From contig OZ251219.1 of the NCBI GenBank assembly GCA_965240465.1, forward strand, positions 480,001 through 544,000: a stretch of DNA of 64,000 nt, written 5' to 3'. Position numbers and translations under genes: made by a program. Within the stretch, counting starts at the first letter, position 1. Every line of letters begins with the position of its first letter. Shown piece after piece: positions 9,564 to 38,963 of this stretch. The stretch comes from a bacterium (lineage in GTDB: Bacteria > SAR324 > JACQKK01). Under the pieces are notes generated by a model, which had not been told where the DNA came from, did no database searches, and saw only the letters and a program-made list of their open reading frames with translations.

Positions 9564-10487
9564 TTAATTTACTGCCAGCCTATCATAAGTAGGAGTCATT
9601 AAATTATTTATAAGGTTATGTTTCCTTTGTTTTGGTGAATTTTCAATCCTGTTCTTTGATAACTCTAAGTATTCTAATTCTGTATCATAACCTATACACT
9701 TTCGGTTATTTTGCACCGATACCAAAGCAGTCTGCCCACTACCTAAAAATGGATCCAGTATGGTATCTCCTTCTTGTGAGTATAACAATAATACCCGACG
9801 TACCAGTTCTTCTGGATATGGGCAAGGATGATTAATTGTTCGCGGCGGTACAGGAGCGATATGCCATATATTATTGGCAATATCTTTGGTGAATAATTCA
9901 TCAACTGCTATGGCTTCTTTTTTGCCTCTACGCATGGCTCCTTCTTTTCTAAATAGTAAAATGTACTCGGTCATTATGTTGGGATAGTAATACCCCATCC
10001 GTGGATTTTGTATGTAGCTGCCCGCTCTACGCACCCCGCCTGTCACCTTATTCCAGATGATATCTTGATGAAATTTCCAACCCGTCTTTACCATACGTTC
10101 TGTGATTGCCATAGGCGTTGCATAGTGTTTGCCTTTATAAAGTATGGTACCGACTACAATGGCACAAAATCCGCCTTCCATTGTCGTCCGTAGTACTTCT
10201 TGGAATGCTTTTTCAATCTTATCAAGATATTCCTCATAGCTATTTCCAAAGGAAGAGTATTTTCTTTCTCTATGCCATGCTTTGGTATCCTTGGCATGAA
10301 TGTCATAATCAATGGAATTCCAGTATGGCGGTGAGGTAATAGTTAGGGCTATTGACTGATCATGGCATTGATTCATTTCCAAACAAGACTGATTAAAAAA
10401 GGAATAGTTATCTCCTTTTACGCTGTTATTGTTTGCACTGTGGTTTGCACTGTTGTTTATACTGTTGTTTATACTGTTGTTGCTCAT
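9564..10487 (-). CDS. Orphan site-specific DNA methyltransferase (beta class, N4-C/N6-A)
   Basis: ITSPPYW precedes HPCPYP and LDPFLGSGQT; AT-rich; no adjacent nuclease. Confidence 0.9.
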   Translation of the reverse strand: MSNNSINNSINNSANHSANNNSVKGDNYSFFNQSCLEMNQCHDQSIALTITSPPYWNSIDYDIHAKDTKAWHRERKYSSFGNSYEEYLDKIEKAFQEVLRTTMEGGFCAIVVGTILYKGKHYATPMAITERMVKTGWKFHQDIIWNKVTGGVRRAGSYIQNPRMGYYYPNIMTEYILLFRKEGAMRRGKKEAIAVDELFTKDIANNIWHIAPVPPRTINHPCPYPEELVRRVLLLYSQEGDTILDPFLGSGQTALVSVQNNRKCIGYDTELEYLELSKNRIENSPKQRKHNLINNLMTPTYDRLAVN

Positions 10488-17819: not shown

Positions 17820-18296
17820 CTATCCTTTGAAAAAATCATCAACAAACTCTCTGTCCTTGCATTTCTCCAACAATATCCAATTGTTTTTTGCTTTTGGTAT
17901 TTTATTCACCGATAGACTTCCCTGTCCTAGTTGCACAATATAGAGGGTGGGAATGAAATAAAAATTGATCCTTCTTTCCCCATTGTCACGTTCCGACTGC
18001 ACCCCGACAACTACGTCCGAAGTTTCAGTAGTTTGAGTATATTCCTTTACCCCAGATTTATACTCCCGATCTACACCGCCCCTCACCCCGCCCACAAACG
18101 ACACCGAACTGCCACTGACGGTTTTTACCTGAACTCTGATGATACAAGAATCTAATTCCACCACGATGTCATAAGTTGAATGAGGTAAATCAACCCGAGA
18201 AGCATTATAACCTCTTTCCAGTAGAGCAGCTAGCATTCTGCTTTCATTGGCGAATCCTTTTGCTGATGCTAGTTTGCCCTTATTTGTCTCTACCAT
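17820..18296 (-). CDS. Small PD-(D/E)XK endonuclease, probable restriction enzyme
   Basis: E...YDIVV...RVQVKT core; overlaps the stop of the upstream MTase. Confidence 0.75.
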   Translation of the reverse strand: MVETNKGKLASAKGFANESRMLAALLERGYNASRVDLPHSTYDIVVELDSCIIRVQVKTVSGSSVSFVGGVRGGVDREYKSGVKEYTQTTETSDVVVGVQSERDNGERRINFYFIPTLYIVQLGQGSLSVNKIPKAKNNWILLEKCKDREFVDDFFKG

Positions 18297-19579
18297 TTTT
18301 TAAGTACCAGTACATGATCTTCTTCTATGCGTTCCCTACGGGGAATTTTAATAAAGTGATTGATGATGCCCGACTCAAAACGGCACTCCACTTGATAACC
18401 AAGCTGAGGAGCAACATCTTTAAGATATCGCCAAGTTTCAAAAGGATGTCCCCTGATAATGTTACTGCCGATCACCATTACGTACCTTCCTCCTTTTTTT
18501 AAGACCCGATACACTTCCTGCATATTCAGCACCATGTCTTGAATAAATTTATAGGCAATATATCCTCGGCGAGGATCTGTTTGATAAATTGATTTAATAA
18601 CCGCATCGGCTGTTTTTATTCCAGTCTGGTGTAGGTGAACATAATCTTGGGCACTTACAATTTCTGTACCCACATGATTTACTTTTAAGTCCCTCAAAGA
18701 CCCATTAGCAAAACCCAGCCAATACATTTCAAGCTGGTGCGTTCTGGGATAATCAACTGCGTTCATGTAGGGCGGCGAAGTTAAGGCTAGTTCAAATGTT
18801 TCGTTTCCATAGATGTGCAGATCCGTGGCACTAGCATTGTTTGGTATTTCAACTGCGGCTAGTTTTGCGTTGCTAAATTCAAGCATGCCTTGAGTACTAC
18901 TTTTCAAACGCTTTTGGAAAAGGCTGATGGCATATCCAGCTTTAATCACTTTATTAAGCTTTTTGCGTACCACCGTGCGCGTACAGTTGTTATCGGCCTG
19001 AGAAGTTTGGCGGATAATGGAAGAAAAACAAATAAACAAAAAATTTCGCAGGGATGACGAACATTTCAATTTCACAATACCAGCCTTAATAAAGGCTAGT
19101 TCCCTTAAAACATGTGGCTTGAACCATCCATCCCGGTAAGGAAAATATGGCACCCCATTAATCAAACAGGATGAAGAAAAAGTATCCAAATAGGACCTTA
19201 TCCGTTCATTTGCCCTAAGGAGTTCATCCATATTTAGGGGGGTAGTTTTAACTAGGGACAGAAAGCGGGAAAACGGGTCTATATCCACTCCCACACTCCG
19301 ACGCCCCAACAGCATGGCTTCAAGGTTGGCGGTACCGCTCCCCATAAAGGGATCCAGCACTAAATCACCAGCCTTACTGTATCGCCTGATAATCCAACGC
19401 GGCAATTCAGGAAAAAATTTGGCGGGATATTTGTGAATCCCATGGGTATAAGCCCTTTGGTCATTGCTGATGAATAAAAATCGCTGCCCATCTCCAATGT
19501 TAAGGTCAATCGGGATATCCCCCTTAATACAGATTGGCACTGCCTTGCTGGTTTGAATGTGGTGAGATCTTGCTAACAT
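18290..19579 (-). CDS. DNA methyltransferase (alpha-order, probable N4-cytosine)
   Basis: THGIHKYPAKF and LDPFMGSGT precede TSPPY. Confidence 0.9.
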   Translation of the reverse strand: MLARSHHIQTSKAVPICIKGDIPIDLNIGDGQRFLFISNDQRAYTHGIHKYPAKFFPELPRWIIRRYSKAGDLVLDPFMGSGTANLEAMLLGRRSVGVDIDPFSRFLSLVKTTPLNMDELLRANERIRSYLDTFSSSCLINGVPYFPYRDGWFKPHVLRELAFIKAGIVKLKCSSSLRNFLFICFSSIIRQTSQADNNCTRTVVRKKLNKVIKAGYAISLFQKRLKSSTQGMLEFSNAKLAAVEIPNNASATDLHIYGNETFELALTSPPYMNAVDYPRTHQLEMYWLGFANGSLRDLKVNHVGTEIVSAQDYVHLHQTGIKTADAVIKSIYQTDPRRGYIAYKFIQDMVLNMQEVYRVLKKGGRYVMVIGSNIIRGHPFETWRYLKDVAPQLGYQVECRFESGIINHFIKIPRRERIEEDHVLVLKKW

Positions 19580-19781
19580 TTACAATGTACTTTTATCATC
19601 CAATGGTAAGAATGTACCTAATTTTGGGTAAGTTTGCCATATGAATGCGTTGTTATAGGATAGCTAATAATAATCTTGTGTGTAGCTAGAAAGATCAGCC
19701 AGAGGAGGTAATATTGTGTCAAGGTTTAGGTTGCGGAGTTAGTGTGGAGGTGAAGTATTAGTATTTTGCGTGTGATTTATT

Positions 19782-20753
19782 GTGAGTATTGGTCGTAGGG
19801 AGTTATTGCGTTTATTGGGGGCGGGGGTTTCTGGAGCGGCTCTGTGGGGTGTGAATGCGAGGTTGGTAGAGGCGGTGATTGGTGGTGTTCGGCAGCCGAA
19901 GTTGGTGTGGTTGAGGGGTTTGGGTACGGATATATCGTTATTGAGTCAGTTGGGGATGCAGCATCCTAATTTTTTGGATTTGGTACGTTTGGAATGGGTT
20001 TTGGATGGAGGTGATGTTTTTTCGGGGGTTTCGGGGTCTTGGAGTTTTGATCGTCTTGGTGAGAGATTAATTTTGGTATTGGAGGGGGTTCCGAGTGAGT
20101 TGGATTTCAGGAGTGAGTTATGGAGCAATTTACTGTCGCGAGGTCAAGCGGCGATATTGTTAGGGACGGATGTTTGCTATGGTGGGGTTGGGGAGTCTTT
20201 AGGTAGTTTGCGTCTTTTGGAGAAGCAATTGGGGGATGCGGGGGTAGCGGTAGTGAAGTTACCTGGGGTACCTCCTCCGCCGCAGCATTTAACGGGTATT
20301 TTGGCATATATGCAGGAGGTTGGTTTTCCTCGTTTGGATGGTCATCAGCGTCCTTTGCTGTATTATGGTCGGACGGTGTGTGAGGATTGCGAACGCCAGG
20401 GGGATTTACAGCGGGGGCGATTTGCGAGTTATGGGGGAGATGAAGGTTGTTTATTGCGTTTGGGTTGTAAGGGTTTGGTTACTCATAATAGTTGTGCTCG
20501 TCAGCGTTGGAATGGTGGGGAGCAGTGGTGTGTGGGGGTTGGAGGAGCTTGTACGGGTTGTTCTGAGCCGAGTTTTCCTAATCATGGAGGTTTGGGTTTA
20601 AGCGGTGCGATTACTGCGGGTTTGGGAGGATCTCGGTGGTGGCGTAGTTTGGGTTGGAGTGGTTGGGGGTTGACGGGTTTGGCAGGTTTGGCTTGGGGGT
20701 TAGAGGGATTGCGGGGCTGGTTATTTTCCACCAAGGAAAAGGGATTGGATTAA
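19782..20753 (+). CDS. [NiFe]-hydrogenase small-subunit homologue lacking proximal-cluster cysteines
   Basis: Tat-like GRRELLRLL; intact C-terminal cluster motifs (CEDC, GCLLRLGCKG, NSC...WNGG..WC...CTGC.EP.FP); C-terminal hydrophobic anchor. Confidence 0.85.
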   Translation: MSIGRRELLRLLGAGVSGAALWGVNARLVEAVIGGVRQPKLVWLRGLGTDISLLSQLGMQHPNFLDLVRLEWVLDGGDVFSGVSGSWSFDRLGERLILVLEGVPSELDFRSELWSNLLSRGQAAILLGTDVCYGGVGESLGSLRLLEKQLGDAGVAVVKLPGVPPPPQHLTGILAYMQEVGFPRLDGHQRPLLYYGRTVCEDCERQGDLQRGRFASYGGDEGCLLRLGCKGLVTHNSCARQRWNGGEQWCVGVGGACTGCSEPSFPNHGGLGLSGAITAGLGGSRWWRSLGWSGWGLTGLAGLAWGLEGLRGWLFSTKEKGLD

Positions 20754-20763
20754 GGTTGGGCTG

Positions 20764-22224
20764 ATGGGATTTTCGGTAAAAAGTTGGTCTGAGAGAGTAC
20801 GAGTAGAGGGGGGGCTGAGCCTTCTTGAAGATGAGCGAGGGCTAATACGCTTAGGGGGGGGACGCTGGCGGAAGATAGAGCACCTATTACGCGGTCGTCC
20901 CCCATTGGAGGCCGTGCAGCTAACTCAGCAAATCAGCGGTGATAGCGGAGTATCCCATGCTTTGGCAGCCCTGCGTGCCTGCGAACAGGCAATGGAGATC
21001 AAGCCCTTAGAGCAAGGCTTGCTACTACGCGAGCTACTTTATGGATTGTCTCAGTTACATGGTCATGTGCGTCATTTTTACTTTCAGGTGTTGCCAGATT
21101 ACTTGCCTGCCCGAGCCCTAAAAAGCTACCGCGGCAAAAACATCGCCCTGCTTAAGGCAGCTAAACTATATACTTCGGCTGCGGGGCAAGATAAAAAATT
21201 CACCTCTGGTTTTAGCTACCTAGAACATCAAAAATTATTAGAGCATCAGTACGATTCTCTCAACGGACTTGCCAATCTGCAACGCATGCTAGCCGTGCTA
21301 GGAGGCAAATTCCCCATGGTGATGTCCCTAGCCCCAGGCGGTCTTACTACTAAAATTGATGACCATAGCTTGTTAAGAATCAAGCGGCTGTTCAACAACC
21401 TCCCCCCGCTGGTGGAAACTCAACTGACCCCAGATATTGCCCTCTTGCTAAATAAACATCCCCTCTTAAAAATCCAAGGACAAAGCCCAATCGCATTTCT
21501 TAGCCTCGGATCCGAAAACGCCACCGTAGAACTCAATGCCGATCCATTTGCAGCCGGGATCCTCACTAATTCCAAGCTCCAACCCCTACCACTAAACTTT
21601 ATAGAAGATATCTCCCACAGCTTCTATCGCCTCTCCCGACCAAAACATATCCTGAAACCCGATCCCCAAAAAACTACCGCCTATAGCTGGATCAAAGCAC
21701 CCCGAAATCAAAATCAACCCCTCCAAGTAGGACCCCTTGCCAGACTAGCCGTCTCTAATCTCACCAGCCACAACCTCCCGAGAGGTACTCTGCTTAACGA
21801 ATTTCAAACCCTCTTTCAAAAACCACCTCACCAAATCAATAATGTCGCCGCTAGGCTGCTCGCTTGCTCCATTGAATCCCGTATACTCCTTCAGCATATC
21901 CAAAATCTGATACTCCAAATTAAACCCAACCAAAAAACCTCCGTCTCCTATCTCCCCTCGCTTAAACATCAACAAGCCTGGGGACATGCCGAAGCCCCCG
22001 CAGGTAGCATCAGCCACCACCTAGTACTTAAAAATGGACGCATCCATCACTACAACATCATCGCCCCAAGCACTTGGAACGGCTCCCCCCTTGACGATAA
22101 AAAACTCGCTGGACCCCTAGAATCAGCCCTCAATCACCGCAATACCAGACCTGACCTCACTCCCCTCACCGCCAACCGCATTATCAATAGCTTCGGCTTC
22201 AGCTCCAGCGATGCCATCCACTAA
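20764..22224 (+). CDS. [NiFe]-hydrogenase large-subunit homologue lacking Ni/Fe-binding cysteines
   Basis: RVEG, IEHLLRGRPP, YSWIKAPR, VGPLAR, EAP.G...HH, IIAPSTWN, GPLESAL; L1 reads QISGDSGVSH and L2 reads SFGFSSSDAIH*. Confidence 0.85.
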   Translation: MGFSVKSWSERVRVEGGLSLLEDERGLIRLGGGRWRKIEHLLRGRPPLEAVQLTQQISGDSGVSHALAALRACEQAMEIKPLEQGLLLRELLYGLSQLHGHVRHFYFQVLPDYLPARALKSYRGKNIALLKAAKLYTSAAGQDKKFTSGFSYLEHQKLLEHQYDSLNGLANLQRMLAVLGGKFPMVMSLAPGGLTTKIDDHSLLRIKRLFNNLPPLVETQLTPDIALLLNKHPLLKIQGQSPIAFLSLGSENATVELNADPFAAGILTNSKLQPLPLNFIEDISHSFYRLSRPKHILKPDPQKTTAYSWIKAPRNQNQPLQVGPLARLAVSNLTSHNLPRGTLLNEFQTLFQKPPHQINNVAARLLACSIESRILLQHIQNLILQIKPNQKTSVSYLPSLKHQQAWGHAEAPAGSISHHLVLKNGRIHHYNIIAPSTWNGSPLDDKKLAGPLESALNHRNTRPDLTPLTANRIINSFGFSSSDAIH

Positions 22225-22248
22225 CACCACTGCTACCCAAACCCGCTG

Positions 22249-22731
22249 ATGAACCTCATCAACCGACAACTGCTCCTCCAAATAGCTCCCCTGCGTTGGA
22301 TACTAGGACGCAAAAATACCCTCGCCCGACCATATCCCCTATACCTAGCCCTAACTGCCACCATATTCTCAGCCGAAATCATCCGTCTGGCTCGCCATAC
22401 CCTAAACTACCATACGTACCAACTCACCCTCGCCTTCCACATCCTCAGCGGTTCTCTGTTGACCATCTTCTTCATCAAGCGTATGATCCAAACGGCATAT
22501 TCCATGTCTCACCAACTCCAAAAACCAAAACCCCTCCCCCTGACCTTTAACTTAGTACTCACTCTCCTGATCCTCACTGGACTCCTGCGTACCTTCCAAC
22601 TACGAACCAACCTCAGCTTACCCAGCTGGGTCGCTCCGCTCCACGGAGCTCTAGCACCTTATATCTGGCTTCTGGTGCTTCTATTATTCAAGCAATTTTG
22701 GAGCAAATCTAAGAAATCCCATCTAAAGTGA
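22249..22731 (+). CDS. Small polytopic membrane protein, possibly cytochrome b-like partner
   Basis: About 4 hydrophobic segments with His in AFHIL and PLHGAL; 24 bp downstream of the large subunit. Confidence 0.5.
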   Translation: MNLINRQLLLQIAPLRWILGRKNTLARPYPLYLALTATIFSAEIIRLARHTLNYHTYQLTLAFHILSGSLLTIFFIKRMIQTAYSMSHQLQKPKPLPLTFNLVLTLLILTGLLRTFQLRTNLSLPSWVAPLHGALAPYIWLLVLLLFKQFWSKSKKSHLK

Positions 22732-22822
22732 ATTACCGTTTCCTTTAGAAGATAAGCTTGTTAGAGAGAGGTTTTTACTACATAGGGTAAGAGAAGGTTG
22801 TAAGCAAAGGGCATCCCTACTA

Positions 22823-22976
22823 TTCAGTACAAAGCACTTACAACTTCACGTGAATGAGTTTGCTTTTAGGCTTAATGATGGCAATGTGAAAAGACACACA
22901 ATGGAGCTGGATCAACAGCTTACTTGACGATGTTCCAGGTAGACAGTTAACCTATGAACAACTTGTGCGAGGGTAG
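22823..22976 (+). pseudogene. IS1595-family transposase C-terminal remnant (frameshifted)
   Basis: Reads FSTKHLQLHVNEFAFRLNDGNVKRHTME, then after a +1 shift INSLLDDVPGRQLTYEQLVRG*, matching the KHL..Y..EF.FR.N...GKRLTY.EL tail of IS1595 transposases. Confidence 0.75.
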
Positions 22977-23023
22977 TTCTTGCATTAAATATTAAATTAA
23001 CATAAGAAACAGGAATTTAATTA

Positions 23024-24826
23024 ATGGCTAATGAACGCAAGACTGAAAATATAGTTAGAAAACATTTCTATCAATTTTCAGATTCCATATCAATAGAAGA
23101 ACAAAGTTCTGATAACCCTAAAATTGATAAATTGCTTAGAAATGCGTCTAAAAAGGGGTTGGGTAAAGGTTATCCTGAATTTATTATTACTCATAATACT
23201 AATTCTGATTTACTAATTGTTATTGAATGTAAGGCAAATATTTTAAAGCATGAAAGTAATGATAAAGATAAATATTCTGAGTTTGCAGTTGATGGAGTTT
23301 TACTTTACGCTTCTTATTTGTCAAAAAGCTATGATGTGTTAGCTGTTGCAGTAAGTGGAGAAGAAGAATCATCATTAAGGATTTCTCATTTCCTACATCT
23401 AAAAAATGATAAAAAATCCACTAAAATTTTTGGAGGCAAACTGCTATCTGTTGATAATTATTTAAATGGATATTTGGAAAAACCAGAAAAAATAAATCAA
23501 GATTATAATACGCTTTTATACTTTACAAAAAAATTAAACAAAAAGTTACATGGTTATAAAATTCCTGAAGACAAAAGAAGCTTATTAATTAGTTCAATTT
23601 TAATCGCACTAGAAGCCAATAGTTTTAAAGAATCTTATTCTTCAGATAAGAGACCTAAAGATTTAGCTGGTAGACTTGTTCAAACTGCTACTAATGAATT
23701 AGAAAATGCTAATATCACAGGGAGGAAACTTCAATACATAAATACTGCATTTGGTTTTATAAAAGAAGATACTTCTTTATCTGAAACAGAAAATGTCTTA
23801 AAAGAAATTATTTATGACATTGATGAAAATATAAATAATTTTACCAAAAATAACAAATATACTGATGTTTTAGGACAATTCTATATTGAATTTTTAAGAT
23901 ACTCAAACAGTGATAAGGGTCTCGGGATCGTTTTAACCCCTCCACATATTACAGAATTTTTTGCAGATTTAGCACAAGTCGATAAAGATTCAATTGCTTA
24001 TGATAACTGTACAGGAACAGGCGGATTTTTAATTAGTGCTATGAAAAAAATGATTGAAGATGCAAAAGATGATGAAGAAAAAATCAAAGAAATAAAATTA
24101 AAACAACTTATTGGAACAGAATATCAACCACATATTTTTGCTTTGGCAGTTTCAAATATGTGTATCCACCAAGACGGAAAAACAAATATTACAAAGGGTA
24201 GTTGTTTTGATAAAAAAGTTATTGATGCAATAAAAAGTGAAAAGCCCACAGTCGGATTTTTAAATCCTCCTTATAAATCAAATAAAAAAGACGATACAGA
24301 CGAATTAAAATTTATTTTAAATAATTTAGATTGTTTAGTTCATGATGGAACCTGTGTTGCTATTGTGCCAATGCAAAGTGCCTTAGCGACCAGCGGTAAA
24401 GTTTTAGGATTTAAAAAGATGCTTCTTGAAAAACACACATTAGAAGCGGTTTTATCGATGCCTAATGAATTGTTTCATAATTCAAAGGTAAACGTTGTTT
24501 CTTGTGTTATGGTTTTTAGGGCCCATAAACCACATTTAGAAAACAAAAAAACATTTTTTGGTTATTTTAAAGATGATGGATTTGTTAAAACAAAAAATAG
24601 AGGTAGAGTAGATGCTGACAATAAATGGAAAGTAATAAGAGACAGATGGTTATCTGCTTACAGCAATAAAGAAAACATTACAGGTTTTAGCGTTATGCAA
24701 AAAGTAACATCACATGATGAATGGTGTGCTGAGGCTTATATGGAAACTGATTATTCAAATTTAACAGAAAAAGATTTCATTAATACAGTTAAAGAATATA
24801 TTGCTTTTAGGGTAAAGTATGGATAA
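23024..24826 (+). CDS. BcgI-like (type IIB/IIG) fused restriction endonuclease/N6-adenine methyltransferase
   Basis: ASKKGLGKGYPEF...IECK nuclease; LGIVLTPPH, YDNCTGTGGFL, LNPPY. Confidence 0.88.
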   Translation: MANERKTENIVRKHFYQFSDSISIEEQSSDNPKIDKLLRNASKKGLGKGYPEFIITHNTNSDLLIVIECKANILKHESNDKDKYSEFAVDGVLLYASYLSKSYDVLAVAVSGEEESSLRISHFLHLKNDKKSTKIFGGKLLSVDNYLNGYLEKPEKINQDYNTLLYFTKKLNKKLHGYKIPEDKRSLLISSILIALEANSFKESYSSDKRPKDLAGRLVQTATNELENANITGRKLQYINTAFGFIKEDTSLSETENVLKEIIYDIDENINNFTKNNKYTDVLGQFYIEFLRYSNSDKGLGIVLTPPHITEFFADLAQVDKDSIAYDNCTGTGGFLISAMKKMIEDAKDDEEKIKEIKLKQLIGTEYQPHIFALAVSNMCIHQDGKTNITKGSCFDKKVIDAIKSEKPTVGFLNPPYKSNKKDDTDELKFILNNLDCLVHDGTCVAIVPMQSALATSGKVLGFKKMLLEKHTLEAVLSMPNELFHNSKVNVVSCVMVFRAHKPHLENKKTFFGYFKDDGFVKTKNRGRVDADNKWKVIRDRWLSAYSNKENITGFSVMQKVTSHDEWCAEAYMETDYSNLTEKDFINTVKEYIAFRVKYG

Positions 24827-25799
24827 AAACATACCTATTAGAGAAATTTTTAGTATTCAATATGGTAATCAATTAGATTTAAACAAGCAAGTTGAGTGTA
24901 AATCTGGAATTAATTTTGTCAATCGTTCTAATAAAAATTTAGGCATATCTACCAAGATTAAAAAGATTGAGGGTATTGAGCCTTTTGAAAAAGGCTTGAT
25001 TACTGTTGCACTAGGTGGGAGCATATTGTCTGCTTTTGTGCAACCATGTCAGTTTTATACAGGACAAAATGTAAAAATTTTAAAACCAAGAGAACCAATA
25101 GATGAAAGTATTAAAATATTTTACTGTATGTGTATATCTCAAAATGCCTATAGATATAGTGCTTTCGGCAGAGAAGCAAATAAAACATTTGATAATTTAT
25201 TAGTCCCACATTCTGATGAATGTAAAAAAATAATTGCTAATTATTCAACACCTAAACAACCATCAGAAAAACCATGTTTAGAAAATAAAGGTCTTAGTCT
25301 ATGGGATAGAGAATGGAGATATTTTAATTTATGTGAATTATTTAATATAAGTGGGTCAAGGAGTTTTACAAAAAAAGAAATTCAAGAATATGGAATAGGG
25401 AATTACCCTTATGTAGTCACTTCGTCAGAAAATAATGGGACAGAAGGCTTTTATAATAAATGTACTGAAAAAGGGAATGTTCTTACTATAGATAGTGCTA
25501 CTGTAGGTAGTTGTTTTTACCAACCTATAGATTTCTCAGCTTCAGATCATGTAGAAAAATTGATACCTAAATTTAGTATGAATGTATTTATTGCACTATT
25601 TTTGCGAACGACTATAAATCTAGAAAGAATCAGATATGGATATGGGAGGAAATTTGCACAAATGAGGATAAAAAATACAAGGATCAAACTTCCAGTCAAA
25701 GAAAGAAAAAAAGAAGCTTACGACCCCGATTGGCAATTTATGGAAGATTATATAAAAGCATTACCTTACAGTAGCAATCTGCAAATTGATGAGTTTTGA
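24819..25799 (+). CDS. R-M specificity (S) subunit with two TRDs
   Basis: Two repeated TRD halves (RYSAFGRE / RYGYGRK), PDWQFMEDYIK; overlaps the RM gene. Confidence 0.85.
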   Translation: MDKNIPIREIFSIQYGNQLDLNKQVECKSGINFVNRSNKNLGISTKIKKIEGIEPFEKGLITVALGGSILSAFVQPCQFYTGQNVKILKPREPIDESIKIFYCMCISQNAYRYSAFGREANKTFDNLLVPHSDECKKIIANYSTPKQPSEKPCLENKGLSLWDREWRYFNLCELFNISGSRSFTKKEIQEYGIGNYPYVVTSSENNGTEGFYNKCTEKGNVLTIDSATVGSCFYQPIDFSASDHVEKLIPKFSMNVFIALFLRTTINLERIRYGYGRKFAQMRIKNTRIKLPVKERKKEAYDPDWQFMEDYIKALPYSSNLQIDEF

Positions 25800-25903: not shown

Positions 25904-26788
25904 TTATTGTTGCCAGATTCGTTTCCAGAAGGCGGAGATGGCTGGGCGGTGTTGTGTGGCTTGTTTGGGGTATTGCTGGTGGATATTATGGGCGATTTGT
26001 TGAATATGCAGGCTAGCGGCTGAATGAGGGAATAGTTTAAGTAGGGGTTGTCTATTACGTACTGCGGTAGGGATGGCGGTATCTTGGGGGATATGCCCTA
26101 GCAGGGGGAGAGGTATGTTGAGGAATTGGAAGCAGGCTTGTTGCATTTTTTGGTGTACGTGTTTAGTTTCTTGAGGAGAGCGGGATTGGTTGATGATGAG
26201 TGAGAATTGGGTTTTGTGATGTTGGAGTCGGAGGAGTTTAATAAGGGCATAGGCATCTGTAAAAGAAGTTGGTTCTGGTGTAGTCACCACGATGATTTGG
26301 TCGGCGGCGGCGTTGAATTGGAGTACCTGAGGAGAGATACCGGCGGCGGTATCTAGTATCCAGTCATCGGTGTTCCAGGGTATTTGGGCGAGGTTTTGGA
26401 GCAAGCGAGTTTGTCCTTCAGTTTCTAGTTGTACGAGTTGATTAATTCCTGAGGCTGAGGGCAGGATTTTAATACCACTGGGTCCATTGAGGGCAATATC
26501 TGCGAGGGACAATTTACCATTGAAGGTATCTTCTAGGGTATATTTTGGTTGTATTCCGAGCAGGATGGGTATATTGGCGAGTCCGATATCAAGATCTATC
26601 AGGGTGATTTGTCTTTTAAGTTTAGCTAGTGCGATTGCTAGATTAAGGGCGAGGTTGCTTTTACCGACTCCTCCTTTGCCGCTGGCGATGGAAATAACTC
26701 TTCCTTTTATGGCTGGGCTGGGTGCTAGCGATGCGTGAATACGCCTAAGACTGGTGGCTTGGTCTGCAGACATCAGGGATTGGTGCAT
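25904..26788 (-). CDS. flhG: Flagellar number regulator, MinD-like ATPase FlhG/FleN
   Basis: DQATSLR, SGKGGVGKS, TPEPTSFTDAYALIK. Confidence 0.92.
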   Translation of the reverse strand: MHQSLMSADQATSLRRIHASLAPSPAIKGRVISIASGKGGVGKSNLALNLAIALAKLKRQITLIDLDIGLANIPILLGIQPKYTLEDTFNGKLSLADIALNGPSGIKILPSASGINQLVQLETEGQTRLLQNLAQIPWNTDDWILDTAAGISPQVLQFNAAADQIIVVTTPEPTSFTDAYALIKLLRLQHHKTQFSLIINQSRSPQETKHVHQKMQQACFQFLNIPLPLLGHIPQDTAIPTAVRNRQPLLKLFPHSAASLHIQQIAHNIHQQYPKQATQHRPAISAFWKRIWQQ

Positions 26789-27166: not shown

Positions 27167-28660
27167 TCAAGCTTCGCTGGAGATTTGAAGTAGTAAGTCA
27201 ATCAATCTTTCTGGGGTAGCTATTTCCATATCTTCGGGTACTCGCTGACCGGTGGTCAGGTAGTTAATGGGCAGTTTGAAACGAATAAAGTGATTAAACA
27301 GTGAGCCGCAATGCATACATTCATCCAATTTGGTGAACAAGACCGATTTTAGAGGCAGGCAACCAAATTTGCGGGTAGTATCAATGAGTTCGGCATCTTT
27401 GGTGGTAGCACTGAGTACCAGACAGATGTCCAGCTGGGGATTATTTTGGAACATTCCCTTTAGTTCTTTCATCTGGGGGAGATCACTTTGCGAGCGACCT
27501 GCGGTATCAACCAGTACCACATCGTAGCTTTGGAACTCTTCCAGAGCTCGGTGTAAATCAGTGCGATCTCTCACCACCGATAATGGCAGATTCATTATCT
27601 TGGCATAGGCTTTTAACTGCTCTAAGGCTCCTATCCTGAAGGTGTCCACCGTTATCAAAGCCGTCTTACGCTTATAGCGTAGCACTTGCTCGCTCGCTAG
27701 CTTAGCCACCGTGGTCGTTTTTCCCACCCCCGTACAACCCACCAACACCAACACCTTCTCACCCGATAAACCACCAGTGGTCTTCACTAAACTAGTTAAC
27801 ATCCGTGCCAAAAAAATCTTTACATAAGTGAAATCTTCTCGCTTTTCAGGCGGTAATCGTTTGGCAGCCTGCTCTACCAAACGCTTAGCAAATTTCTCCT
27901 CCAAACCATGAACCACCAAATGCTGCTGCAAACCCATTAAGGTCTCTGGTAAATCCAAACCCACCTTCAAACCCCCTCCCTGCAACGCTTGCACTGCCTG
28001 CCGCATATCTGTTAACTCATGGTGCAACTGACGCATTGCATGACCTCCCAGTCCCTCCTCCTCCTTCACCACTTTTAGCAACTGCTTCAACTGATGAACT
28101 TCACTACATAAACCTCGCAAAACCGAATCCCGCTCCGCCATGCCTGACCGAACAACTTGATCACTAACTTCTACCACCCTCGCTGACCCCCCTCCATCTC
28201 CCCTTCCTCCAAACGAAGTACCCCCACTTGACCCCTCCTGACCTGCCCCCTCCTGACCTGCCCCCTCCTGACCTGCCCCCTCCTGACCTGCCCCCTCCTG
28301 ACCTGACCCCTCGCCAGACGCTCCCCCACCTGCTCTCCCATTTGCTCCCTCGCCAGATGCTCCCCCACCTGCTCTCCCATTTGCCCCCTCAACCACTCCC
28401 TCCTTTTCCTTCGCCGCACTCCCCTCTGCCAATCCTACTGCCTCCCTCTCCATATCAAAACGACCAACCCCCCTCGACTCACCAACACCCCCTTCTTCAG
28501 GCCTCACCGCAGCTACCTCCCATAACTGACGCCTCAAAAACGGAATCCCCACTCTCCGCAACTGACGAGTAGATAAAATCAGGGCATCCCCACCCAAATC
28601 CTGACGGGTTTTTTGCAGGGCTTCCCGCATGTCAGCCCCTCGATAGTGCTTCACACCCAT
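27167..28660 (-). CDS. flhF: SRP-type GTPase FlhF
   Basis: LGGDALILS N-terminus, GCTGVGKTTT, DTFRIGA, DTAGRS, TKLDE, GQRVPED. Confidence 0.93.
   Translation of the reverse strand: MGVKHYRGADMREALQKTRQDLGGDALILSTRQLRRVGIPFLRRQLWEVAAVRPEEGGVGESRGVGRFDMEREAVGLAEGSAAKEKEGVVEGANGRAGGGASGEGANGRAGGGASGEGSGQEGAGQEGAGQEGAGQEGAGQEGSSGGTSFGGRGDGGGSARVVEVSDQVVRSGMAERDSVLRGLCSEVHQLKQLLKVVKEEEGLGGHAMRQLHHELTDMRQAVQALQGGGLKVGLDLPETLMGLQQHLVVHGLEEKFAKRLVEQAAKRLPPEKREDFTYVKIFLARMLTSLVKTTGGLSGEKVLVLVGCTGVGKTTTVAKLASEQVLRYKRKTALITVDTFRIGALEQLKAYAKIMNLPLSVVRDRTDLHRALEEFQSYDVVLVDTAGRSQSDLPQMKELKGMFQNNPQLDICLVLSATTKDAELIDTTRKFGCLPLKSVLFTKLDECMHCGSLFNHFIRFKLPINYLTTGQRVPEDMEIATPERLIDLLLQISSEA
28230..28389. repeat. 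In-frame repeats in the flhF linker (15 bp x5, 39 bp x2)
   Basis: Encodes GQEGA x5 and EGANGRAGGGASG x2. Confidence 0.9.
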
Positions 28661-36915: not shown

Positions 36916-37896
36916 ATGAAACTGAAGACCAACACTATTATTTGTGGAGATTGTTTGATTGTATTGCAAAAATTTCCCAGTAACAGTATAGATTGTGTAA
37001 TAACTTCCCCTCCTTATTACCAACAAAGAGGATATAACGGAATAGGTATAGGCAGAGAAAATGGATTAAATAATTACATTGAATCTCTACACGAAACATT
37101 TGATGAAGTGATAAGAGTTACAAAGAAAACAGGAAATATATTCTACAATATAGGAGATAAAATAAACAAGACTAAAGGTGCATTACTTATACCCTATAGG
37201 TTTGCTTTGCAAATGTTAGATCAATATAGGGAATTACAACTAATTAATAATATTACTTGGACAAAAAAAAACCCCACCCCACGACAGTATAATAGACGAT
37301 TAGTAAGTGCAACAGAACCGTTTTTTCATTTTGTAAAAAGTGGTGAATACTATTATGCAATAGATGAATATCTTGCCAGTAAATCCACAAAGAATCATAA
37401 ACATACTCCTAAATTGGGATTGAGGTATCTTGAATTAATCAAGAAATCTAACCTAAGTGAGCAAGAAAAAGAAAAAGCCAATATAGCTGTTAAAGAAGTT
37501 ATTGATGAAGTTAAAGCAGGAGAAATACATGGTTTTAGAGTAAAGATAAAGGGTATTCATGCTCCAGCATTTGGCGGTCAGGAAGGGGGAAGACAAACTC
37601 AAATAAAAAAGCAAGGATTTACTATTATTAAGTTAAAAGGAAACCAATTAAAGAAAGATTATGTTGAAACGGCTGTAGAAAGTCCCCGTCACAAAATTAA
37701 ACACCCAGCAGTATACCCTCTAAAACTTATAGAAGAGCTAATAAAACTTGGTTGCCCTCCCAATGGTATTGTACTTGATCATTATTGTGGAAGTGGCACA
37801 ACATTGGTAGCAGCTAAAAATCAAAATAGAAATTACATAGGGATTGAAATAAGCCCTGAATACTGCCAGTTATCACAACAGAGAATAGAGCAATGA
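36916..37896 (+). CDS. DNA methyltransferase (beta class)
   Basis: ITSPPYY, then HPAVYP and LDHYCGSGTT; AT-rich. Confidence 0.9.
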   Translation: MKLKTNTIICGDCLIVLQKFPSNSIDCVITSPPYYQQRGYNGIGIGRENGLNNYIESLHETFDEVIRVTKKTGNIFYNIGDKINKTKGALLIPYRFALQMLDQYRELQLINNITWTKKNPTPRQYNRRLVSATEPFFHFVKSGEYYYAIDEYLASKSTKNHKHTPKLGLRYLELIKKSNLSEQEKEKANIAVKEVIDEVKAGEIHGFRVKIKGIHAPAFGGQEGGRQTQIKKQGFTIIKLKGNQLKKDYVETAVESPRHKIKHPAVYPLKLIEELIKLGCPPNGIVLDHYCGSGTTLVAAKNQNRNYIGIEISPEYCQLSQQRIEQ

Positions 37897-38963
37897 CACC
37901 AAATGATATACTAAAATCACTGCTTTTAAGGAAAGTCACAGTAGAAATTAACCAAGAATTAATTGACTATCTAGATATGATAATAAAGGAAAGAGAAAAC
38001 AGAATAGCAGTTATGACGATGACTATATGTCTTTTGCTGAAGAAGCATACTGATCCCTCGCAGAACATTACCCTACATCAGGCAAAAATGACAGGTGGGT
38101 TTAGTGCAAGGGGTTTTGATGAGAGATTTGTTACTCCTTTTTTGAAAGACAACAAATTCCCATACATGAAAAGCGGTAGTGGCGCTCTAACACGATCATT
38201 GGAGCATTCTATACCTTTCAATTTAGGTTATACTGGAGGAATAACACCAAAAGAATTAAAAAAGGCATTCCTAGAAATAGTGGATAGTGTACAAAATCGT
38301 GGAGCAATCTCTGAAGAGCTACTAATATATATCCTGAATAAATTAGTTATCTACAGAGACAGAGATACTAGTATTAAGTTGATAATACCTTCTAATCTAT
38401 CAATTAAAGATATGGTAGCAAAATTACATCAACATTTTAATGCATGCAAACACGGAGCAAGACTACCACAATTAGCAATTTATGCAGTTTATACAATACT
38501 TACCAAAGAAATGGATAGATACAAACAACATACTTTATGTAAATTACAATCACATCAATCAGCAGACAGAAAGACACATTTTTTGGGCGACATACAAGTC
38601 AATGATGAAAACGGAATACCTTTTGAAGTAGTAGAGATAAAACATAAAATACAACTAACTGCCAATTTAGTAGAAGAGTGTTATGATAAATTCAAAACCT
38701 CAAAGATAAACACATTTTATCTGCTAAGCACTAATGAAGAGTTGAAAGAACCAGAAGAGATAAGCAATAAAATTATGTACATATATAAAACACACGGTTG
38801 CCAAATGATTGTGAATGGCGTATTCATTACATTAAAATACTATCTTAGATTACTTAGTGACCCCTATCTATTTCTTAACAAATATCTTGAATTAGTGGAA
38901 CAAGATAGTAAGTATGAGGTAAAAGTTAATTGGCAAAATATGTGGGATTCTGTTAACGAATAA
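37893..38963 (+). CDS. Probable type II restriction endonuclease
   Basis: ATGA-coupled to the MTase; PD-(D/E)XK-like GDIQV...EIKH; AT-rich. Confidence 0.7.
   Translation: MTPNDILKSLLLRKVTVEINQELIDYLDMIIKERENRIAVMTMTICLLLKKHTDPSQNITLHQAKMTGGFSARGFDERFVTPFLKDNKFPYMKSGSGALTRSLEHSIPFNLGYTGGITPKELKKAFLEIVDSVQNRGAISEELLIYILNKLVIYRDRDTSIKLIIPSNLSIKDMVAKLHQHFNACKHGARLPQLAIYAVYTILTKEMDRYKQHTLCKLQSHQSADRKTHFLGDIQVNDENGIPFEVVEIKHKIQLTANLVEECYDKFKTSKINTFYLLSTNEELKEPEEISNKIMYIYKTHGCQMIVNGVFITLKYYLRLLSDPYLFLNKYLELVEQDSKYEVKVNWQNMWDSVNE

Follow-up and report, generated by a model that had tools for sequence, protein, structure and literature searches.

Introduction

Relatives of [NiFe] hydrogenases in which the cysteines (Cys) of the Ni-Fe site are missing occur in group 4, where the NuoD/NuoB pair of complex I, Ehr and Mbx/MBS have lost the Ni-Fe site and have been reused in other redox machines. 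These group-4-derived modules face the cytoplasm and keep the cluster nearest to the old active site (N2). A different kind of large-subunit relative, HupK, is described in one account as a cytoplasmic scaffold of approximately 37 kDa that binds the Fe(CN)2CO precursor; its gene is situated between hupF and hypC in hup/hyp clusters that belong to O2-tolerant hydrogenases (PMC3534401). Here we analyse a three-gene operon from a bacterium of the SAR324 lineage (contig OZ251219.1, positions 480,001 to 544,000 of the forward strand; this whole stretch of 64,000 nucleotides is referred to as the window), which encodes a small subunit, a large subunit and a membrane subunit of group-1 hydrogenase type in the absence of all four Ni-Fe Cys. 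An earlier reading of the window, made from the sequence alone and referred to below as the original prediction, had known of no complete periplasmic set of small, large and membrane subunits of this Cys-less kind, and no description of a Cys-less group-1 trio was found in the full-text literature either (supplements lie outside its reach and subscription journals are mostly not covered). Where papers on SAR324 mention hydrogenases, the parts concerned list 'HyaAB' or HydDB group 1d hydrogenases and nothing further; the pangenome paper lists 'hydrogenase (HyaAB)' (PMC8364033), which may refer to genes of the window type.

Family assignment of the operon

The operon consists of three intact open reading frames (ORFs) at positions 19782-22731 of the + strand, separated by intergenic gaps of 10 and 24 nt (Table 1), in agreement with the intact and closely spaced frames of the original prediction. 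The large subunit matched the Pfam family PF00374 (NiFeSe_Hases) with an E value of 7.9e-61. HMMER searches aligned it at E<=0.001 to 68 solved hydrogenase chains, with the [NiFeSe] enzyme of Dm. baculatum as the best solved match (4kl8_L, E 8.1e-39; 1cc1_L, approximately 1e-38). For the small subunit, the C-terminal half matched PF14720 (NiFe_hyd_SSU_C; E 5e-21) and the N-terminal half remained under the cut-off for PF01058 (Oxidored_q6; E 0.034); its closest solved relatives are the [NiFe] enzymes of A. vinosum and Desulfovibrio (E 2e-29 to 1e-24), and 3myr_A is its best solved match (E 1.8e-29). The nearest solved relatives of both subunits are thus periplasmic enzymes. No Pfam family was assigned to the window copy of the third protein, and all NCBIfam hydrogenase models scored under their curated cut-offs (e.g. 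NF033181 with 227 bits vs 600). A search of a protein-cluster atlas returned generic PF00374 clusters alone, and a promoter and terminator scan of positions 19500-23100 was uninformative (7 and 6 sites vs 4.2 and 4.2 in shuffles). Together, the sequence relationships indicate that the ancestor of the trio was a membrane-bound [NiFe] hydrogenase of group 1 located in the periplasm.

Loss of the Ni-Fe site and of the proximal cluster

Motif positions were assigned by HMMER alignments to solved [NiFeSe] and [NiFe] hydrogenases and by alignments to 64 Cys-containing relatives. In the large subunit of the window, the L1 core RxCGxC of the relatives reads QISGDS, and the four Ni-Fe Cys positions are occupied by Ser58, Ser61, Ser480 and Asp483. 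The 17 Cys-less sequences in the tree described below, which fall into two clades, have without exception lost these Cys as well, and so have 17 more proteins of clade 2. Two of the replacing residues are themselves well conserved: Ser58 is found in 15 of 17 Cys-less proteins at a position that is Cys in 64/64 relatives, and Asp483 in all 17 where 63/64 relatives have Cys. Clade 2 has kept Ser at the first former Cys position and carries Asp or Glu at the last one (17/17). The other two former Cys positions are variable (S/A/G/K/H), as is the Arg position of EAPRG, which is A/S/G/T across the Cys-less proteins. E15, E39, H99 and H418, pocket-framing residues common with true hydrogenases, are invariant. 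The original prediction had read Ser for both L1 Cys, EAPAG for EAPRG, and SFGFSSSDAIH followed by a stop for L2, and the alignments bear out all three readings. It had further pointed to the missing cleavable C-terminal extension; the extension is indeed absent, but this does not distinguish the protein, as the L2 His is also the last residue in the majority of its closest relatives with Cys. Judged by these alignments, the large subunit is a protein that has lost all residues holding the nickel-iron centre and has kept its fold along with many structural residues.

Conservation in the small subunit was evaluated in an alignment of 15 orthologues, and 17 Cys-less small subunits were used for the His/Cys and tail comparisons. 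At none of the four proximal-cluster positions was Cys present in any of the 17 proteins, whereas eight Cys that correspond to ligands of the two outer clusters (C200, C203, C223, C229, C238, C250, C257 and C260) were invariant in the 15 orthologues. The loss of the proximal ligands seen in the original prediction was found again at Thr49, Ser52, Asp130 and Val163, and so was the retention of the twin-arginine (Tat) signal, the C-terminal anchor and the medial and distal ligands. Two refinements had escaped it: the distal His is replaced by Cys (C200) in 17/17 Cys-less proteins but is His in 58/58 Cys-containing relatives, and C250 adds a fourth Cys to the ligands of the medial cluster, which resembles that of [NiFeSe] enzymes in this respect. 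By number and position, the eight Cys suffice for a predicted all-Cys distal and a predicted four-Cys medial [4Fe-4S] cluster. Conserved residues specific to the family are H169, E204 and H268. In the AlphaFold 2 (AF2) model of the small subunit, the N-terminal alpha/beta domain has a predicted local distance difference test (pLDDT) score of 70-93, and the best Foldseek matches of the model are [NiFe] small subunits (E 5e-10).

Distribution, phylogeny and selection

A word-indexed search of 5.8 billion proteins gave 42 matches, 35 of them with the Cys-less motifs (36-61% identical; large-subunit consensus LTQQxxADxxVSHALAA, EAPAG and C-terminal HSFxFSxxDAVH). The next matches, 27-31% identical in the large-subunit alignment, are ordinary RxCGxC...DPCxxC proteins. 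Scanning one genome per species, we obtained 393 relatives, of which the best 80 loci were analysed: 16 are Cys-less and 64 carry the L1 Cys pair, joined in 63 of these by the L2 Cys pair (the end of L040 is not resolved). The Cys-less loci have the gene order small subunit, large subunit, membrane gene. The nearest Cys-containing relatives (the 64 loci among L015-L082), which come from Thermodesulfobacteriota, Planctomycetota, Verrucomicrobiota and others, mostly have the large subunit before the small subunit.

A maximum-likelihood tree was built from 81 large-subunit sequences under LG+G4 with a quick search, the columns of the active site being retained. In it, the 17 Cys-less rows form one split against the 64 Cys-containing rows with a support of 100 in the Shimodaira-Hasegawa-like approximate likelihood ratio test (SH-aLRT). 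Clade 1 comprises the window, L003-L014 and L051, and clade 2 comprises L018, L035 and L068. A survey of 88 species genomes of the phylum revealed the large subunit at >500 bits in 19/19 genomes of the window's family. Matches of approximately 300 bits fetched from families f7 (16/16) and f6 (1/1) were all Cys-less clade-2 proteins, which places the trio in at least 16 of the 19 genomes of f7 and in the single genome of f6; the three best matches of family f2 (45 genomes) are true Cys-containing hydrogenases. The Cys-less form is thus present in at least 36 of the 88 genomes. Among 1.84 billion cluster representatives searched, approximately 14 full-length clade-1 and approximately 6 clade-2-like proteins were found, and the family is therefore real but small. 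Four further large-subunit representatives (P0060, P0080, P0066 and P0067) have a degenerate L2, e.g. SFDPNITAAVH or SFDIQGLEAIQ, and may be further or independent Cys-less lineages.

Selection was estimated as the ratio of nonsynonymous to synonymous substitution rates (dN/dS) by the Nei-Gojobori method. Between the window and its relative L003, the small-subunit gene had a dN/dS of 0.13 and the membrane gene one of 0.17; in the large-subunit gene, the proportions of differing nonsynonymous and synonymous sites were pN 0.25 and pS 0.77, the latter being saturated. Three other pairs gave 0.19-0.25, and the range for the trio is similar to that of the neighbouring FlhF and FlhG-like genes. The trio has moreover been kept in a one-contig genome of 1.6 Mb, while genomes of family relatives measure 2.3-5.2 Mb. 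These comparisons indicate that the Cys-less family is old and under purifying selection. The original prediction had argued against random decay, which it expected to show as Cys-keeping orthologues in close relatives and a dN/dS of about 1. Its argument is strongly supported: orthologues in 19/19 family genomes and in the sister clade have the same substitutions, the split is supported by an SH-aLRT of 100, and dN/dS is 0.13-0.25. Because the stripped-down version is conserved across the phylum, it points to a repurposed protein and not to a dying gene.

The membrane subunit

A gene of membrane-subunit type follows the large subunit in 15/15 aligned loci. Beyond the start Met, its product has H64, G111 and H132 as invariant residues and no others, and the presence of just two invariant His suggests one heme rather than two. 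Nine of the 15 members matched PF01292 at E<=0.1 (best 6.5e-9), all of them below or near the cut-off. The AF2 model of the membrane protein has a pLDDT of 81.7. When it was compared with 48,161 chains, the most similar structure was E. coli Hyd-1 cytochrome b (4gd3_A; Z 12.2, root-mean-square deviation 4.0 Å over 137 residues), followed by CybB (5oc0_A; Z 11.0). Foldseek returned no match to the model at E<=0.001, and a profile search of the membrane-protein family against the sequences of solved structures gave nothing meaningful (best E 0.53). A complex prediction of small-subunit residues 185-323 with the membrane protein scored 0.01 and was used neither for nor against an interaction. From the invariant His and the modelled fold, the third gene probably encodes a shortened HyaC-type anchor with one heme; the PF01292 matches and the structural match likewise point to a HyaC-like cytochrome b type for the membrane-partner ORF of the original prediction. 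The heme presumably lies on the periplasmic side, by analogy with FdnI and HyaC.

Table 1. Features of the hydrogenase-like operon and of the neighbouring flagellar-cluster remnant, in window positions.
Feature	Position	Strand	Remarks
Small-subunit-like gene	19782..20753	+	323 aa, GTG start; Tat signal, N-terminal alpha/beta domain, C-terminal cluster domain, membrane helix
Twin-arginine codons R5, R6 (Tat signal)	19794..19799	+	Invariant in 15/15 orthologues
WLRGLGTDIS, residues 43-52, former proximal-cluster CxxC	19908..19937	+	Cys to Thr49, Cys to Ser52; aligned to Cys-containing small subunits
GTDVCYGG, residues 128-135, former proximal ligand GTC	20163..20186	+	Cys to Asp130
PGVPP, residues 161-165, former proximal ligand PGCPP	20262..20276	+	Cys to Val163
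Putative distal ligands C200, C203, C223, C229 and medial ligands C238, C250, C257, C260	20379..20561	+	Conserved Cys
C-terminal hydrophobic helix, predicted membrane anchor, residues 285-314	20634..20723	+	AF2 helix H285-314; similar tail in 17/17 Cys-less small subunits
Large-subunit-like gene	20764..22224	+	486 aa; without signal peptide and without any of the four Ni-Fe Cys
Former L1 motif TQQISGDSGVSH, residues 54-65	20923..20958	+	RxCGxCxxxH in relatives; Cys to Ser58, Cys to Ser61
EAPAG for EAPRG, residues 410-414	21991..22005	+	Active-site Arg to Ala
Former L2 motif SFGFSSSDAIH then stop, residues 476-486	22189..22224	+	SFDPCxxCxxH in relatives; Cys to Ser480, Cys to Asp483
HyaC-type cytochrome b-like membrane subunit, shortened	22249..22731	+	160 aa, four long helices
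H64 codon	22438-22440	+	Invariant; putative heme ligand
H132 codon	22642-22644	+	Invariant; putative heme ligand
FlhG/MinD-like ATPase	25904-26788	-	Pfam; flagellar-cluster remnant
FlhF	27167-28660	-	TIGR03499, 205 bits vs cut-off 174; flagellar-cluster remnant

Maturation genes and host capacity

The genome containing the window is a single contig of 1,599,138 bp with an estimated completeness of 83.6%, and the window locus is its sole PF00374 match. Scanning 44 window ORFs revealed no Hyp or protease genes, as already noted in the original prediction, which had also proposed a genome-wide check for hyp genes; in a check that covered HypD alone among the Hyp proteins, neither HypD nor a HycI-type protease was found in the whole one-contig genome at the completeness given. 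HypD is encoded in 5/19 family genomes, leaving 14/19 with the trio but without HypD. In four of the five (G001, G003, G004 and G013), HypD shares its contig with a separate 573-aa large-subunit frame of the Cys type, and the fifth, G006, has a further weak match. Going by gene content, the trio is INDEPENDENCE from hydrogenase maturation and does not depend on the Hyp machinery. The genome encodes TatC, a ferrochelatase and a heme-copper oxidase, so that export, heme supply and a respiratory chain are available to the predicted complex.

Proposed role and alternative explanations

We lean towards the view that the trio, a non-hydrogenase descendant of a group-1 enzyme, forms a periplasmic module that has no activity with H2, is linked to quinone and serves in electron transfer or as a scaffold. 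The large subunit would be exported by riding on the Tat signal of the small subunit, and the resulting complex would sit on the periplasmic face of the membrane, unable to activate H2. Electrons could run along a chain of medial cluster, distal cluster and one heme b that would link the quinone pool to some periplasmic partner. The metal-free large subunit would serve as a structural or docking subunit, electronically disconnected; given the known cluster spacing in solved hydrogenases, loss of the proximal cluster would leave a gap of approximately 20 Å or more. Of the 'repurposed periplasmic redox module' proposed in the original prediction, repurposing over decay has held up, and the redox role is reasonable in view of the Tat signal, the eight Cys and the two His from which it is deduced.

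Several observations weigh against an electron-transfer or scaffold module. That clusters and heme are bound is deduced solely from the conservation of their ligands, and the cluster-binding C-terminal domain of the small subunit has a pLDDT of only 28-47 in the AF2 model. The window's own membrane protein gave no match to PF01292, and a Z of approximately 12 among helical bundles can reflect a common arrangement. After loss of the proximal cluster, the medial cluster is without an evident donor or acceptor, and the 'wire' may lead to nowhere. The Ser58/Asp483 pair in the old pocket hints at a role of the large subunit beyond that of a scaffold, and the conserved flagellar neighbourhood described below is not explained by electron transfer.

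The Ser/Asp pair would find its explanation if a new ligand-binding or catalytic site had formed in the old Ni-Fe pocket, lined by Ser58 and Asp483 plus Gln55 and Glu15, and the complex were a sensor or an enzyme for another periplasmic substrate or metal. We consider this unlikely, even though the two residues stand in 15/17 and 17/17 proteins where relatives have Cys, clade 2 keeps the first-position Ser and a last-position Asp/Glu in 17/17, the framing residues E15, E39, H99 and H418 are invariant and purifying selection on the large subunit equals that on the small subunit: the two other former Cys positions (S/A/G/K/H) and the Arg position (A/S/G/T) vary, no redox path leads to the pocket once the proximal cluster is lost, and no partner gene that would suggest a substrate is conserved in both clades. 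It is very improbable that the trio is still a hydrogenase with an unconventional, non-Cys metal site. Such an enzyme would be compatible with the overall fold and with the residues kept in the Mg-site region (E39 and the C-terminal His/Gln), but nothing remains of the four Cys, of the catalytic Arg or of the proximal cluster, no HypD or HycI was found in the genome, and Ser/Asp ligation is not known from any hydrogenase. We give next to no credence to decaying pseudogenes or to sequencing errors as the source of the substitutions. The loss of all catalytic residues and the very unusual base composition of the operon would fit either of them, but the frames are intact, the same substitutions recur in 36/88 phylum genomes, dN/dS is 0.13-0.25, the Cys-less proteins form a single ancient clade and the cluster and heme ligands are invariant; on the conservation across the phylum and on dN/dS, both readings were rejected.

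In most relatives the trio adjoins flagellar genes, as would be expected if the module were an accessory of the flagellum, e.g. a motor component in the periplasm or the membrane, or a device that feeds redox signals to the motor. This neighbourhood was the least expected outcome of the analysis; like the spread of the family across the phylum and the strand-composition pattern described below, it had not been noticed in the original prediction. In clade 2 the trio is tightly packed behind FliF-FliH-FliI and a metallophosphoesterase, all of them co-directional and a few bases apart, and CoaE comes next (3/3 loci scanned); in clade 1 it lies divergently beside FliR-FlhB-FlhA-FlhF, and in 9/17 genomes of the family's other genera one contig carries both FlhA and the large subunit at a distance of 4.3-5.2 kb. 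The window and L003 keep FlhF and the FlhG-like gene within approximately 4 kb of the trio despite a local inversion; in the window, the two genes lie 3.2 kb downstream of it, behind an inserted low-GC type I restriction-modification pair. However, FlhA is on other contigs in seven of the 17 genomes and 545 kb away in one (G002). In the window genome and its sister genome, each of one contig, FlhA is absent and no FliF scored above the cut-off, and the trio is kept under purifying selection in both. Conversely, FlhA is present in 40/45 f2 genomes and a Cys-less-profile match >280 bits in 0/45, the three best f2 matches being those that keep Cys. The clade-2 operons also hold housekeeping genes (CoaE, VanY), whose company suggests that the tight packing may reflect no more than synteny, and related genomes are non-independent samples. 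Since the genomes without FlhA and FliF retain the trio, the flagellar link is not obligatory, and an obligatory flagellar role was accordingly downgraded. The link is treated here as conserved synteny, or at most as an accessory relation, and not as the function; we regard a flagellar accessory as quite improbable.

A more far-reaching reading, which we put forward as a tentative possibility, is that a phylum-wide, Hyp-independent, Tat-exported complex derived from group 1 has acquired a new and important periplasmic function, either as a quinone-linked electron hub with two outer clusters and one heme b or through a Ser/Asp-lined binding site. If so, the importance of the function would be apparent from its survival of the reduction to 1.6 Mb and of the loss of the flagellum once encoded beside the trio. 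It would also be a second, independent conversion of a hydrogenase into another respiratory or sensory machine, after complex I.

Implications for annotation and evolution

Annotation pipelines name the trio proteins that pass PF00374 'nickel-dependent hydrogenase' or HyaAB. Scoring the trio as a capacity for H2 oxidation would be an error for 36/88 genomes of the phylum, and in at least 14/19 family genomes no HypD-dependent hydrogenase can be made. As an evolutionary case, the active site and the adjacent cluster appear to have been lost together and the outer clusters, the export signal and the anchor to have been kept, which is the reverse of complex I. As a natural apo-scaffold, the trio could moreover be used to probe what a large subunit without Ni-Fe cofactor contributes to Tat export, assembly and stability.

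Genomic surroundings

The recurrent non-flagellar neighbours are an acyl-CoA dehydrogenase, a LexA-like S24 peptidase and a zinc-ribbon protein in clade 1, and the metallophosphoesterase and CoaE in clade 2; as none is common to both clades, no substrate can be inferred from the context. The acyl-CoA dehydrogenase gene (612-634 aa, PF12806) follows the membrane gene after approximately 100 nt on the same strand in four of five clade-1 loci scanned (L006, L009, L014 and L051), and L009 and L014 have a molybdopterin oxidoreductase and an Fe-S/NrfD fusion nearby. None of these genes stands beside the trio in the window or in L003. These two loci differ by a local rearrangement: in L003, FlhF/FlhG lie upstream of the trio and share its strand, in the window they lie downstream of it in the opposite orientation, and the zinc-ribbon gene is on opposite sides of the trio. 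The FlhF and FlhG/MinD-like ATPase kept in the window's genus (G000, G005) give the impression of proteins for flagellar placement that have stayed on after the flagellum itself was lost.

The window is dense in restriction-modification genes (185-1090, 9564-10487, 17820-19579, 23024-25799 and 36916-38963), among them a HaeIII-like endonuclease, three N4/N6 DNA methylases, a PD-(D/E)XK nuclease and a type I M+S pair. Several are located in low-GC islands (0.29-0.33 vs 0.45 for the genome), and two of the systems immediately flank the hydrogenase-like operon.

The operon itself displays an extreme flip of GC skew on the + strand (positions 19600-22750), with values between +0.45 and +0.66 over the small-subunit gene and between -0.26 and -0.56 in the region made up of the 3' two-thirds of the large-subunit gene plus the whole membrane gene. 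The skew at third codon positions (GC3 skew) of the small-subunit gene, +0.88, is the highest of 1069 ORFs of the genome, where the coding-strand GC3 skew has a standard deviation of 0.315. The sister genome (L003, 6900-9900) also has this pattern, despite the saturation of synonymous sites between the two genomes, and none of eight other family loci has the flip. Within genes, the GC3 skew declines from 5' to 3' (means of the thirds +0.10, -0.02 and -0.12; n = 686), and a drop of >0.5 from the first to the last third occurs in 21% of genes, a rise of that size in 1%. Transcription-linked deamination in a repair-poor reduced genome could produce such a pattern.

Comparison with known systems

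The window trio follows the same plan as group-1 uptake hydrogenases of the HysAB, HynAB and HyaABC type, namely an anchored small subunit with a Tat signal, a large subunit without signal and a membrane subunit of putative cytochrome b type, and it has the four-Cys medial cluster motif of the group-1 [NiFeSe] enzymes. It differs from all of these in the loss of the Ni-Fe Cys, of the catalytic Arg and of the proximal cluster, in the change of the distal His to Cys, in the shortened cytochrome b with two and not four conserved His, and in that no Hyp or protease genes appear to be needed. The membrane subunit is modelled with a four-helix membrane fold like that of the HyaC/FdnI/CybB cytochrome b561 family (PF01292), but is shorter at 160 aa (178-210 aa in the trio relatives) and has two conserved His where four are usual for HyaC-type cytochromes b.

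HupK/HoxV resembles the large subunit of the window in being a large-subunit relative that is itself no hydrogenase. Unlike HupK/HoxV, the window protein has 486 aa, its gene is flanked by those of its own small subunit with Tat signal and of the putative cytochrome b, and it is found in genomes that lack HypD; the NCBIfam matches of the window proteins included no model for HupK. With regard to complex I and Ehr, the trio gave no Pfam match to PF00346, to which the 49 kDa subunit of complex I belongs, PF01058 reached only the sub-threshold E of 0.034 given above, the ligands equivalent to those of N2 are lost, and the nearest relatives are periplasmic enzymes of group 1. Whereas the complex I/Ehr type is derived from group 4, the window trio is group-1-derived, bears a Tat export signal, and has lost the ligands of the inner cluster while keeping those of the two outer ones. 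The Cys-less trio is therefore different from all known Cys-less hydrogenase relatives with which it was compared, those of group 4 as well as HupK/HoxV.

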